Assembly: GCA_038323715.1 (NCBI GenBank)
Contig: JBBQHF010000006.1
Span: 1-51,257 of the forward strand
Source of the DNA: Patescibacteria group bacterium
Lineage (GTDB): Bacteria; Patescibacteriota; Patescibacteriia; Patescibacteriales; UBA12465
DNA length: 51,257 nucleotides
Direction: 5' to 3'
Part shown: positions 4,860 through 33,185 of the stretch, one piece after another
Position numbering within the stretch: the stretch's first letter is position 1
How the letters are laid out: the number at the start of each line of letters is the position of its first letter
Notes under the pieces: generated by a model
The model's input: the letters and a program-made list of their open reading frames with translations, nothing else
What the model was told of the DNA's origin: nothing
Database searches by the model: none
Position numbers and translations under genes: made by a program

Positions 4860-4930
4860 CGGGCTGTAGTATAATGGTAGTACGCGTGCATGGGGTGCAT
4901 GTAGCCCCGGTCCGATTCCGGGCAGCCCGA
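4860..4930 (+). tRNA. tRNA-Pro (anticodon GGG)
   Basis: Hand-folded cloverleaf. Acceptor CGGGCTG/CAGCCCG, D stem GTAT/GTAC, anticodon stem CGTGC/GCATG, loop AT-GGG-GT with G37. The T arm is CCCGG-TCCGATT-CCGGG, so the T-loop reads TCC rather than TTC. No CCA is encoded. Confidence 0.85.
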
Positions 4931-4952
4931 CCTTTATTCTATGCTAACTTTA

Positions 4953-5025
4953 GGGCTTGTAGCTCATCTGGTAGAGCGCTGCATTCGCATTGCAGAGGTA
5001 AGGGGTTCGAGTCCCCTCAAGTCCA
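4953..5025 (+). tRNA. tRNA-Ala (anticodon CGC)
   Basis: Acceptor GGGCTTG/CAAGTCC carries the G3:U70 Ala identity pair. Anticodon loop TT-CGC-AT, T arm AGGGG-TTCGAGT-CCCCT. Confidence 0.9.
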
Positions 5026-5082
5026 CATAATCCCAAGAACTATCGGGCACCCAGGTAGCCCGAACAAAAAATTTTATTAATT

Positions 5083-31164: not shown

Positions 31165-31193
31165 TTGACAATGACAGCTAATTCTATTATTAT
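31165..31193 (+). promoter_or_regulatory. sigma70-like promoter for tRNA-Arg/tRNA-His
   Basis: TTGACA (31165-31170), 17-nt spacer, TATTAT (31188-31193), about 20 nt upstream of tRNA-Arg. Confidence 0.5.
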
Positions 31194-31212: not shown

Positions 31213-31284
31213 GCGCCCGTAGTTCAATGGATAGAACACCAGCCTTCTAAGCTGGTTATGAGGGTTCGATTCCCCCCGGGCGTA
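31213..31284 (+). tRNA. tRNA-Arg (anticodon UCU)
   Basis: Acceptor GCGCCCG/CGGGCGT (G1.U72 wobble), D stem GTTC/GAAC, anticodon stem CCAGC/GCTGG, loop CT-TCT-AA. The T arm GAGGG-TTCGATT-CCCCC has one A.C mismatch. Confidence 0.85.
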
Positions 31285-31305
31285 CGTTTTGAGAAAAACA
31301 AGCAT

Positions 31306-31377
31306 GGTGCCTATGGTGTAGTGGTAACACGCCAGGTTGTGGTCCTGTTATTGTGGGTTCGATTCCCACTAGGCACC
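31306..31377 (+). tRNA. tRNA-His (anticodon GUG) with genomically encoded G-1
   Basis: G-1 pairs with discriminator C73. Acceptor GTGCCTA/TAGGCAC, anticodon loop TT-GTG-GT, T arm GTGGG-TTCGATT-CCCAC. Confidence 0.9.
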
Positions 31378-31385
31378 CTATAAAT

Positions 31386-31415
31386 AAAAAGAGCAGATAT
31401 TATCTGCTCTTTTTG
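31386..31415 (+). terminator. intrinsic terminator after tRNA-His (module a)
   Basis: GAGCAGATA-T-TATCTGCTC perfect hairpin followed by TTTTT. Confidence 0.75.
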
Positions 31416-31428
31416 TTTAGGTAGTAGA

Positions 31429-31570
31429 GGAATCGAACAGGTTGGAAGCGAAATATGAGTTGAGGCGGAAGCCGAAACGAGTAATTGAGTGTCGGACAAA
31501 TATCCGGGGGATATTTGGACGCCAACCCAGGACAAGTGAGCTTTTTGCATTATGGCAAAAAGCGAGCGCG
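31429..31570 (+). repeat. 142-nt structured repeat, copy 1 (unclassified; candidate ncRNA or miniature mobile element)
   Basis: Identical to 32752-32893 at 141/142 positions by my alignment. About 49% G+C by my count (70/142). Contains two perfect 9-bp hairpins and a GNRA-capped hairpin. Confidence 0.85.
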
Positions 31571-31572
31571 CT

Positions 31573-31625
31573 TTCCCGATAGGCACCCCATTTGGAAAAG
31601 ACGAGCTTAAAGGCTCATTTTTTTA
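31573..31625 (+). other. tRNA-His 3'-end-like remnant plus weak hairpin and T-run (module b)
   Basis: TTCCCGATAGGCACCC compared with the genuine tRNA end TTCCCACTAGGCACCC (14/16). GAGC-TTAAAG-GCTC and a T-run follow. Confidence 0.6.
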
Positions 31626-31684
31626 TTTACTTTTTAACTAAACCAAGGTAAACTTATTGTATAATTATCATATTATTTTTAGTT

Positions 31685-32293
31685 ATGAAAAAATTAATAT
31701 TTATTGCAATTATTCCATTATTTTTAATTATCTCTGGTATTGTTTTTGCTGCCGAAGGTATAAAATATGATTTTGATGATGTTGAGGTTAAATATGCCGC
31801 CGAATTTACAGCCAAACCTATAAGTGTTGATTCTGATAATTGGATAGCCCAGATTGCAGGAGGCATTGATAAGCCTATAACTATTCTTTATGGAATTGTT
31901 AATCTTAAAAAAAATGGGGAAACTCAAATGTCTGAAGAATTTATTAAAGTTAGCGGTCAGGGTGGTTCAGAAAGATTTCTGATAAATAGCGCCACTTACG
32001 ATTATTACGAAGGAACGAGTAATTATTCGGAGATAAAATCATTTTTTTGGTCCGCTAAAAAATTAGTAGATAACAGTGTTATTAAAGATTTTACGTTACC
32101 AATTAGATCGGTTAGTTTATATAGGAAATTTGATGTATCCCAACAAATAAGTAATATAGTATTATCATTTTCTAATAATGGACAGGAAGCTACTAGTGAA
32201 TTTTCGTCTTCAATCCCCTCTAAAAATTTATATGAGGCAGATATTACCACATTAAATCAATCTGGTGCCACAACCGCAACAATCTCTAATTAA
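31685..32293 (+). CDS. hypothetical secreted protein (202 aa) with an N-terminal signal peptide
   Basis: MKKLIFIAIIPLFLIISGIVFA|AEG is signal-peptide-like. No family recognised. Lies between the two repeat copies. Confidence 0.6.
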   Translation: MKKLIFIAIIPLFLIISGIVFAAEGIKYDFDDVEVKYAAEFTAKPISVDSDNWIAQIAGGIDKPITILYGIVNLKKNGETQMSEEFIKVSGQGGSERFLINSATYDYYEGTSNYSEIKSFFWSAKKLVDNSVIKDFTLPIRSVSLYRKFDVSQQISNIVLSFSNNGQEATSEFSSSIPSKNLYEADITTLNQSGATTATISN

Positions 32294-32297
32294 ATTT

Positions 32298-32546
32298 ATG
32301 AATAAAATAATTATTATCATTATCGGGGTGGTGCTTATTGGAGGAATAGTGTTCGCTTTCAAAAATCTTTATAGCCCATTAGTAGTGGCCCCAGAATTAA
32401 CATCCACGGTCAACACTGAAAAAACAACGCCTTCTCAGACTCAGGTTAGCTCAACTTCAACCACAAGTATGGTTAAGCCAGTAGACATTTCAATAAATAT
32501 TCTTGATCGAATCGAAATAGCTATTCGAGCAAAGCTTCAAAAATAG
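32298..32546 (+). CDS. hypothetical small membrane-anchored Ser/Thr-rich protein (82 aa from MNKIIII...)
   Basis: The ORF-track start at 32265 overlaps the upstream gene by 29 nt. The internal ATG at 32298 begins directly with the TM helix, so I prefer it. Confidence 0.5.
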   Translation: MNKIIIIIIGVVLIGGIVFAFKNLYSPLVVAPELTSTVNTEKTTPSQTQVSSTSTTSMVKPVDISINILDRIEIAIRAKLQK

Positions 32547-32682
32547 AAACACCACGGCATTCCTTGTTGTTACTTATTTTGATTACAAAATATTTATAAT
32601 TTATACTTCAAAATCAAAACTCTTCTGAAAAATATCTAGCTCTATAGCTATGTTTTCCCAATCAAAAGTTCTGAACGCATCA

Positions 32683-32731
32683 CATAGTGGACCCTATAAT
32701 AAAAAAGAATAGATTTTATCTATTCTTTTTT
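32683..32731 (+). other. tRNA-His 3'-end-like remnant plus terminator hairpin (module c)
   Basis: CATAGTGGACCCTATAATAAAAAA-GAATAGAT-TTT-ATCTATTC-TTTTTT parallels CACTAGGCACCCTATAAATAAAAA-GAGCAGATA-T-TATCTGCTC-TTTTT of module a. Confidence 0.6.
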
Positions 32732-32751
32732 ATTATGGCTGGAACAGCCAG

Positions 32752-32893
32752 GGAATCGAACAGGTTGGAAGCGAAATATGAGTTGAGGCGGAAGCCGAAA
32801 CGAGTAATTGAGTGTCGGACAAATATCCGGGGGATATTTGGACGCCAACCCAGGACAAGTGAGCTTTTTGCATTATGGCAAAAAGTGAGCGCG
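32752..32893 (+). repeat. 142-nt structured repeat, copy 2
   Basis: Same orientation as copy 1. The single difference is T32886 against C31563. Confidence 0.85.
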
Positions 32894-32902
32894 ATGATTT
32901 CT

Positions 32903-32947
32903 GAGTAGCCACCCATAAAAAAGAGCACATAATGTGTACTCTTTTTT
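32903..32947. other. tRNA-His 3'-end-like remnant plus bidirectional terminator hairpin (module d)
   Basis: GAGTAGCCACCCATAAAAAA-GAGCACAT..ATGTGTACTC-TTTTTTGTTT parallels module a, including the TTTTTGTTT tail. Confidence 0.55.
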
Positions 32948-32972
32948 GTTTGCTTTGTGTATTTTTGAGACT

Positions 32973-33185
32973 TTATTTTTTTTCTTTATATTTTACCTCC
33001 CAAGTTAGGCCTGTTTTTATACCAGATATTGCTGGTAATAGATGATTAAGGACCTGCTCAGCTGTCATCCGAAATTTATTACCTTTGGCAGAAATTTTAA
33101 CCCAACCATCCTGGTCGCGAAAATATTTTTCAGTGAAATTTTTAGTGCCTATTGATATTATGTAGCTGTCATTTGTTAATTTCAT
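32973..33185 (-). CDS. hypothetical small protein (70 aa)
   Basis: ORF with TGATATAAT ending about 8 nt upstream of its ATG, so possibly leaderless. No family recognised. Confidence 0.45.
   Translation of the reverse strand: MKLTNDSYIISIGTKNFTEKYFRDQDGWVKISAKGNKFRMTAEQVLNHLLPAISGIKTGLTWEVKYKEKK

Follow-up and report, generated by a model that had tools for sequence, protein, structure and literature searches.

Protein-less cassettes with a conserved RNA-like core behind tRNA-His of a Patescibacteria group bacterium

Two described systems come close to the subject of this report, a pair of short repeated units, here called cassettes, that stand behind the tRNA-His gene of a Patescibacteria group bacterium. 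The first is the genomic island that a tyrosine integrase places in a tRNA gene. At the two borders of such an island the tRNA 3' end stands in direct repetition: the copy carried by the element completes the tRNA anew, and the native end is displaced. They accrete in tandem and occur as presence/absence alleles. A T-loop sublocation class of the tyrosine integrases that use tRNA and transfer-messenger RNA (tmRNA) genes was reportedly defined by Williams in 2002, and integrase-less derivatives of tRNA-gene islands are known as cis-mobilizable elements (CIMEs) and tycheposon satellites. The second system is the RtT unit (RF00391) of E. coli, a repeat of which Egan and Landy are said to have counted 3.14 copies in 1978. 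Four such units lie in the tyrT/tyrV locus of strain K-12. RtT is reported to be released from the tyrT transcript (PMC3318445; bioRxiv 10.1101/2024.07.17.603846), and it is said to act in the processing of this transcript and perhaps in the stringent response, its role being described as unclear (bioRxiv 10.1101/2024.07.17.603846; PMC3318445, citing Bosl and Kersten 1991).

Here, we analyse a 51,257-nt stretch of DNA (the window), which is contig C6, JBBQHF010000006.1, of assembly GCA_038323715.1 (860 kb, 23 contigs, 35% GC). An earlier note had described four modules in it, a to d, which resemble the tRNA-His 3' end followed by a terminator and which bracket two nearly identical repeats, and had called the whole the scar of an integration hotspot. 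Our favoured explanation, to which we give about even chances, is that the modules bound two intact copies of a ~220-bp protein-less, non-autonomous integrative cassette in the T-loop of tRNA-His, and that its cargo is an RNA that mimics the end of a tRNA. Such an element would link two old puzzles: the integrase-less units that gather at tRNA genes, and the nature of RtT and other tRNA-linked repeats of E. coli.

Anatomy of the cassettes and polarity of insertion

The cassette is ~220 bp long and has no protein gene. In the 5' to 3' direction it consists of the 3' part of the tRNA (nt ~59 to the discriminator), a palindromic terminator e1 (~40 nt), a spacer of 10-20 nt, a 12-nt segment c'b' and a core of ~130 nt; beyond the core stand the displaced original tRNA 3' end and the terminator native to it. 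Across the family, c'b' (consensus GGGAATCGAAC) reads as the antisense of the local tRNA's T-loop together with the 3' strand of its T-stem. The right repeat is a direct copy of this tRNA from T-loop nt ~59 to the discriminator, and it includes CCA in lineages with gene-encoded CCA. Pairing of c' with the downstream tRNA-end copy over 6-11 bp forms a closing helix, P0, from which the acceptor 3' strand remains as a tail. The cassette is closely tied to its tRNA in that it replaces the 3' end, holds an antisense T-arm and recruits the displaced tRNA end into its own fold. In the window, the two cassettes and their surroundings are arranged as follows.

31165-31193 (+): sigma-70-like promoter, TTGACA-17-TATTAT, matching the consensus at 11/12 positions; assigned to the tRNA-Arg/tRNA-His unit
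31213-31285: tRNA-Arg, 5' neighbour of tRNA-His in the same unit
31307-31378 (+): tRNA-His(GTG), from tRNA detection
31363-31378 (+): module a, tRNA-His 3' part from the T-loop, TTCCCACTAGGCACCC; left repeat copy
31381-31419 (+): e1 of cassette 1, near-perfect palindrome with the shape of a bidirectional terminator; 19-nt arms, 95% complementary
31427-31438 (+): c'b' of cassette 1, GAGGAATCGAAC, antisense of tRNA T-loop and T-stem 3' strand (positions ~53-64)
31427-31574 (+): structured core (X) of cassette 1, covariance-model match of 171 bits
31573-31589 (+): module b, right repeat of cassette 1, TTCCCGATAGGCACCCC; 3' strand of P0 and single-stranded tail
31598-31625 (+): native tRNA-His terminator, GAAAAGACGAGCTTAAAGGCTCATTTTTTT, hairpin 31603-31616 and T-run; directly behind tRNA-His at the empty sites of relatives
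31685-32546 (+): two small genes separating the cassettes, for a signal-peptide-like protein of 202 amino acids and a membrane-like protein of ~82 amino acids
32691-32736 (+): module c, e1-type palindromic terminator of cassette 2; 19-nt arms, 100% complementary
32737-32749 (+): P(-1), small GC hairpin GGCTGGAACAGCC directly 5' of core 2; -7.4 kcal/mol
32750-32897 (+): structured core (X) of cassette 2, covariance-model match of 173.7 bits
32750-32761 (+): c'b' of cassette 2, AGGGAATCGAAC, within core 2
32898-32914 (+): module d, decayed tRNA-His 3'-end copy TTTCTGAGTAGCCACCC; right repeat of cassette 2
32915-32950 (+): palindromic terminator past module d, 86% complementary to the e1 of module a as an inverted repeat
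32973-33185 (-): open reading frame (ORF) of 70 amino acids beside the array, with an 84%-identical copy in genome G009

Our analysis bears out the order proposed in the earlier note (a - repeat1 - b - two genes - c - repeat2 - d), and the 142-nt repeats at 31429-31570 and 32752-32893 show 99% identity to each other. Module a is, as claimed, the genuine tRNA-His 3' end with a palindromic terminator (31381-31419), which begins 2-3 nt past the end of the tRNA. The 5' strand of P0 in cassette 1 is the c'b' segment GAGGAATCGAAC. To each of the other modules we applied a local alignment to the tRNA-His 3' end with 2000 shuffles. Module b TTCCCGATAGGCACCCC agrees with that end at 14/16 positions, a score equalled in 1/2000 shuffles, and a terminator does follow it. 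The description of module c stands in its terminator part, which across 45 nt has 80% identity to that of module a; its tRNA-like bases, a supposed decayed T arm at 32667-32694, fail, with an equal score in 724/2000 shuffles. Module d TTTCTGAGTAGCCACCC is marginal when taken alone (47/2000 shuffles), and it is accepted as a right repeat because its position fits where most family members carry the cognate tRNA 3' end.

The polarity of insertion is given by the tRNA-Arg/His locus, which was compared in 11 relatives. A cassette occupies the site behind tRNA-His in G000, G004, G014 and G019; the site is empty in G002, G005, G007, G010, G013 and others, so that the locus is polymorphic among relatives rather than conserved. 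At the empty sites of G002, G010, G013 and G005, tRNA-His is followed directly by GAAAAGACGAG(T/C)TTAAAAGCTCGTTTTTT, and a similar form is found in G007. As the terminator of module b is this empty-site terminator, module b and its terminator represent the displaced native end. Empty alleles of the kind foreseen in the earlier note thus exist in these five genomes, except that tRNA-His is joined to the terminator of module b and not to module d. The inserted segment comprises the tRNA 3' part, e1, spacer, c'b' and core, and the left repeat copy TTCCCACTAGGCACCC of the present tRNA-His would have been supplied by the cassette. One e1 is common to two different tRNA-Ser genes of G006, and another to the tRNA-Glu cassettes of G004, G015 and G016; e1 therefore belongs to the cassette. 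Furthermore, the tRNA-Ser(gct) gene of G006 bears the acceptor 3' strand and the e1 of the tRNA-Ser(tga) cassette. The working tRNA-His has the T-stem GTGGG/CCCAC, whereas module b keeps CCCGA, the allele of several relatives (TCGGG/CCCGA), which suggests that insertion replaced the 3' half of the tRNA and that the 5' strand was compensated later. The T-stem of tRNA-His varies among most of the relatives compared, and cassettes may drive the turnover of tRNA T-stems, as the allele in module b beside the working, compensated tRNA-His would illustrate. Like integrative elements of tRNA genes, the locus displays a tRNA 3' end duplicated in direct orientation from within a loop, a new 3' end supplied by the element with the native one at the far border, and both filled and empty alleles. 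An element-encoded integrase was seen neither in the cassette nor in the window, where the earlier note had already found no tyrosine integrase. The cassette does not fit the pattern of miniature inverted-repeat transposable elements, with terminal inverted repeats and a short target-site duplication made by a DDE transposase: the sole inverted pair (c'/c) is tRNA-derived and varies with the site, and the flank is a 17-nt tRNA end, not a duplication of fixed length.

A hallmark of the cassette is its long e1, whose arms have a median length of 18 nt in the family; the median for the terminators further downstream is 7 nt, and most e1 are unrelated to the terminator downstream of the same cassette. 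The spacer contains a small GC hairpin in about one third of the family (25/79 members at <=-3 kcal/mol). At two loci, tRNA-Val of G014 (L074) and tRNA-Gly of G000:C18 (L013), e1 equals the downstream terminator in reverse complement, exactly or nearly so, and the loop alone is inverted. This flip/flop resembles the outcome of hairpin-mediated copying, and most other cassettes are without it. We considered whether e1, spacer and c'b' arose together through a recent inverted duplication of the tRNA 3' region with its native terminator, and rejected this, as the loop is inverted in 2 or 3 cases only.

The cassette is related to RtT in design, with no detectable homology. Both are same-strand units directly behind a tRNA, repeated in tandem, each ending in a copy of the tRNA 3' end. 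In the RF00391 consensus, GGGGAAGGAU pairs with AUCCUUCCCC, inverted T-stem/acceptor bases of tRNA-Tyr against a direct copy of the tRNA 3' end, and CACCACCA is the tail. This closing helix, with the acceptor 3' strand (including CCA in RtT) as its tail, is the counterpart of P0 and its tail. Nevertheless, there are clear differences between the two. RF00391 misses the cores at E values of up to 10 in the window region and up to 1 on 13 loci, and our family models R1 and R2 gave no genuine match when run on the tyrT locus of E. coli. The inner fold of RtT is unlike that of the cassette core; RtT holds a direct copy of the tRNA-Tyr variable arm and T-stem 5' strand, as judged by eye, whereas the core holds an antisense T-loop. 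In addition, the present family stands behind many tRNA species, has a perfect-palindrome terminator and occurs as filled and empty alleles. As a separate observation by eye, each RtT unit of locus L296 (K-12 1286700-1287620, minus strand) resembles a tRNA-Tyr 3' half (variable arm, T-stem 5' strand, TTCGA) into which ~70 nt have been inserted behind A58; the break falls at the same T-loop position as the cassette junction.

With tyrosine-integrase islands the cassette shares every feature listed at the outset, and real T-loop islands occupy the same tRNAs in relatives. It differs in being just ~220 bp long, in having no integrase or protein cargo, in not co-occurring with their integrase, in consisting mainly of a covarying RNA and an antisense T-arm, and in a repeat that begins at nt ~59 rather than ~54. 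A looser analogy may be drawn with integron attC sites, CTX attP(+), IS110 bridge RNA and the omega RNA of IS200/605, where the fold would likewise bring together two segments that match the target strands and has no protein gene of its own. We take this likeness to folded single-strand sites and recombinase guide RNAs to be no more than a resemblance. The cassette places the segments that match the target at the ends of its fold, not in internal loops.

The structured core and its family

BLAST and a covariance model find six copies of the cassette in this genome, two of them within the window. The other four lie behind tRNA-Trp (C1), tRNA-Glu-UUC (C4) and tRNA-Gly-GCC (C18) and at the edge of C12, the last with a tRNA-Ser-like end downstream. 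When the six copies are aligned with their flanks, a tRNA and a hairpin stand upstream and the 3' end of the same tRNA stands downstream each time; the repeat reads TTCCCTCATCCCGTGC behind the Trp copy, TTCCCCTAGGGACTAC behind the Glu copy and TTCCCCTTACCCGCTC behind the Gly copy. Since each of the six copies has the 3' end of its own tRNA, the modules are not a mere resemblance between AT-rich terminator regions. That view, in which the modules are unrelated to tRNA and alike by chance, agrees with the tRNA-like part of module c, where it holds, and with the marginal score of module d alone. It is at odds with module b and with the cognate repeats behind about 30 other copies at other tRNAs; modules a, b and d as a set already refute it, and we regard it as virtually untenable.

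The element is not confined to this genome. About 90 copies of constant layout are spread across 21/41 related genomes, and a copy number of 0-15 is found within the genus, seven genomes of which lack the element, including one that is a single contig. Many copies in the genus are in tandem or at contig ends, where cassettes break assemblies. In the class, 55/301 genomes (43/237 genera) have the element, and a broader model finds it in further classes of the phylum. Its position is always 3' of tRNA or tmRNA genes: at least 17 tRNA species are hosts by manual count, and one copy stands behind a tmRNA gene. The match to the host gene is specific. On average c'b' agrees with the cognate T-arm at 11.2/12 positions, as against 9.8 for other tRNAs, and it is perfect in 18/46 cognate pairs compared with 1.8% of non-cognate pairs. 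All nine tRNAs with unusual T-loops (GTCCGA, GTTCAA, TTTCGA) are matched by their own c'b' (9/9, manual count). The P0 duplex has a mean of -8.5 kcal/mol for cognate and -6.6 for non-cognate combinations. Where an upstream tRNA was identified, the right repeat agrees with it at >=13/15 positions in 32/46 copies; it is this shared position that upholds the earlier note's module d.

The core folds as a three-way junction, in which P1 encloses P2 and P3, followed by a hairpin P4. The GGAA loop of P2 is invariant across the six copies of this genome, and the junctions are conserved and purine-rich (GGACAAGUGAG, GCGAGCGCGA). Compensatory changes occur at 24/39 pairs among these six copies, and in 83 distinct sequences all of the core pairs change on both sides (39/39). 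Paired cells amount to 90%, compared with 63% for shuffled sequences and ~35% when partners are slid by 1-3 columns. G-U pairs outnumber A-C combinations in the core by 146 to 27; therefore the + strand, which is that of the tRNA, is the one that folds. The fold does not depend on the right repeat. At two tRNA-Gly loci, L115 (G005) and L116 (G015), orthologous cassettes have no downstream tRNA-end copy within 18 kb, and their cores keep the fold through compensatory changes, which means that the core is selected independently of the repeat. The earlier note's label of a scar is therefore mistaken, for the core is a structured RNA with strong conservation and covariation, and it is retained even without a right repeat. 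Absent from that note are the antisense T-arm at the 5' end of the core, the spread of the family through the genome and the phylum, and the likeness to E. coli RtT. The family is a widespread RNA-like fold with textbook covariation and is among the commonest repeats of these very small genomes.

Rfam 15 at gathering and permissive thresholds matches tRNAs and tmRNA only in the window and 13 diverse loci and leaves the core unmatched; this includes models for group I introns and other catalogued ribozymes or riboswitches. Full-text literature searches did not retrieve the core family, and a loose pattern scan of genome and viral contig collections gave one real match and none that is viral. 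The core is a family that is new to Rfam 15 and uncatalogued. A minus-strand tRNA, a tmRNA or an intron-bearing tRNA within the core was rejected, as ARAGORN and Rfam returned nothing and the G-U asymmetry favours the + strand. A protein-coding core was rejected as well: the open frames are by-products of GC-rich sequence, and the sole 'family' among them is the core itself.

In a tree of cores alone, copies cluster largely by genome and not by tRNA, and cores at different tRNAs within a genome are 40-89% identical. The left arms (e1 and spacer), in contrast, are specific to the tRNA type and conserved between species. We read this as exchange of cores between cassettes through homologous recombination, rather than very recent hopping. 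A re-templating of the flanks at each hop was considered and set aside, because the identity of cores at different tRNAs nowhere exceeds 89%, a level that divergence and recombination of the ordinary kind would explain.

Recombinases and competing explanations

At the DNA level, the favoured explanation proposes that the tRNA T-loop would serve as attB and the carried tRNA 3' end as the identity block of attP. The recombinase would come from elsewhere, most likely from the T-loop-specific tyrosine integrases of islands at the same tRNAs in relatives, and the cores would then be shuffled among copies via homologous recombination. At the RNA level, the core would be transcribed by read-through from the tRNA promoter past e1 and excised as a stable RNA, the closing helix and 3' tail of which may mimic the T-stem and the acceptor end of a tRNA, much as those of RtT do in E. 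coli. Owing to this tRNA-like end, tRNA-processing enzymes could trim it. If it is true that tRNA maturation enzymes process the RNA, selfish or regulatory RNAs can ride tRNA operons.

The sole tyrosine recombinase of this genome is an Xer-like PF00589 protein on C1, which has a counterpart in nearly every relative; the absence of a tyrosine integrase from the window thus extends, with this single exception, to the rest of the 860-kb genome. In several relatives, tyrosine integrases of 370-390 amino acids abut tRNA-Glu, Gly, Asn, Val and Ser. Since this integrase family stands beside several tRNAs, a T-loop-specific integrase circulates in these bacteria. Two loci, L288 (G006:C7:45000-64500) and L289 (G004:C13:11000-24000), contain islands of 7-15 kb with a tyrosine integrase (Pfam) of 371-389 amino acids beside tRNA-Glu or tRNA-Gly. 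These islands are in tandem with a cassette at the same tRNA, the island lying between the tRNA and the older cassette. For the Gly and Asn islands, whose far border was found, the repeat begins in the T-loop; that of the tRNA-Glu island of G006 seems, by eye, to extend back to the anticodon arm. The core as the far end of the G006 and G004 islands was rejected, each island having its own right repeat. Judged from ORF sizes and first residues only, both islands carry restriction-modification-like genes. Trans-mobilisation of the cassettes by T-loop tyrosine integrases is plausible but unproven.

Several findings weigh against the integrative cassette as proposed. The T-loop integrase family is present in 13/301 genomes of the class and the element in 55/301, and both are present in 2; with no co-occurrence over the 301 genomes, this integrase was rejected as an obligate partner. 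The earlier note's alternative of miniature elements mobilised in trans holds in its anatomy, units of ~200 nt without an integrase in an attL/attR-like duplication of tRNA 3' ends, and is not supported in its mobilisation. The recombinases of this genome are the Xer-like protein and a 107-amino-acid serine-recombinase fragment only, and the distribution of the element is followed by no recombinase; G015 carries 11 copies, and Xer and one reverse transcriptase only are present there, without a serine recombinase. The repeat of the bounded island of G004 begins at ~T54, whereas that of the cassette begins at nt ~59, and the integrase islands have neither the inverted T-arm nor the core. The identity of 40-89% between cores at different tRNAs leaves recent hopping unsupported. 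No promoter was seen before either core, which is the reason why read-through from the tRNA promoter is proposed; the site at 31165-31193 is the sole strong promoter-like site 5' of cassette 1. Finally, T-loop bases external to the cassette covary with b', and a double-stranded attP does not account for this. Three explanations remain for the b' match: a mechanism based on a folded site or a guide, base pairing to the precursor of the tRNA, or template-switch correction in the quasi-palindrome of tRNA end, e1 and c'b'.

The rival that we hold to be unlikely, though a serious contender, is that the core is a gene for a functional RNA which resides in tRNA operons, is of the RtT or tRNA-linked-repeat type and is not mobile. 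Such a gene would be inherited vertically; unequal crossing-over at the repeated tRNA ends would both duplicate it in tandem and remove it, and gene conversion would keep the copies of one genome alike. The RtT-like design, the strong purifying selection on structure even where the right repeat is missing, the left arms that are tRNA-type-specific across species while cores cluster by genome, and the failure to find a mobilising enzyme all agree with such a gene. It is harder to reconcile with hosts as diverse as at least 17 tRNA species and tmRNA, with 0-15 copies within one genus and seven genomes with none, or with filled and empty alleles at the same tRNA-His. The CCCGA of module b, shared with relatives, beside the CCCAC of the present tRNA-His is also what replacement of the 3' part by an incoming unit would be expected to leave. 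Very unlikely, in our view, is a homology-arm cassette spread by DNA uptake and recombination, with the tRNA gene as left arm and the 17-20-nt copy as right arm (homology-facilitated illegitimate recombination) and no site-specific enzyme. The arms do fit the local tRNA exactly and are conserved between species, no enzyme was found, and the hybrid tRNA-Ser(gct) of G006 is of the expected kind; however, a right arm of 17 nt is very short, and both c'b' and the conserved core are left unexplained.

A quite improbable alternative is guided or folded-site integration without a dedicated integrase, in which a housekeeping or unrecognised enzyme inserts the unit. In the tRNA gene, c'b' would be complementary to the top strand at nt 53-64, and the 3' copy (= nt 59-73) to the bottom strand; both would be presented by a guide RNA or by one strand of DNA, folded so that its P0 stem imitates the double-stranded T-arm, comparable to the CTX attP(+) hairpin with XerCD, to attC or to IS110 bridge RNA. 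This would account for the tracking of T-loop variants outside the cassette by b' (9/9 unusual loops) and for the cognate excess of c'b'. It also fits the folding of the + strand, the reproduction of the target's c:c' duplex by P0, the persistence of the element where Xer is the sole recombinase, and the frequency of tandem arrays. On the other hand, no enzyme was found for it. TnpB (PF07282) is absent from 39/41 genomes, including all element-rich genomes of the genus; reverse transcriptase, serine recombinase and TnpB show no correlation with copy number; and the cores have no recurrent protein neighbour. Neither an integron integrase nor an IS110 transposase nor TnpB adjoins or correlates with the cassette, as far as can be said from searches that covered TnpB and neighbouring ORFs alone and were not directed at IS110. 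Known dif consensus sequences have no convincing match in this genome, and the b' match may itself stem from template-switch correction in the quasi-palindrome (b c d - e1 - c' b'). Doubtful to much the same degree is the proposal that the cassette carries its own targeting device: the antisense T-arm 12-mer and the sense nt 59-73, kept adjacent by the conserved fold of an RNA or of a single DNA strand, would read both strands of the tRNA gene, a host or unrecognised enzyme would insert the unit, and RtT could be a decayed relative. If it is true that the matched ends direct insertion, this would be a new kind of guided integration by a protein-less, re-targetable module.

Neighbouring genes and minor observations

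The two proteins encoded between the cassettes (202 and ~82 amino acids) have no Pfam family match. The 70-amino-acid ORF at 32973-33185 is probably another small tRNA-linked cassette: its copy in G009 (L027, about 1018-1227) sits between two degenerate tRNA-Gln 3'-end copies. Small protein-coding cassettes also seem to gather between tRNA-end repeats. Stop-free frames of 70-150 amino acids cross the GC-rich cores on both strands (31311-31586 (-) in the window, and other loci), and ORF finders would call them genes, although they are artefacts that stem from the structured RNA. Elsewhere, the window has no 23S or 5S rRNA match at the gathering score; it contains the 3' three quarters of a 16S rRNA gene at 1-1248 and tRNA-Pro and tRNA-Ala at 4860-5026.

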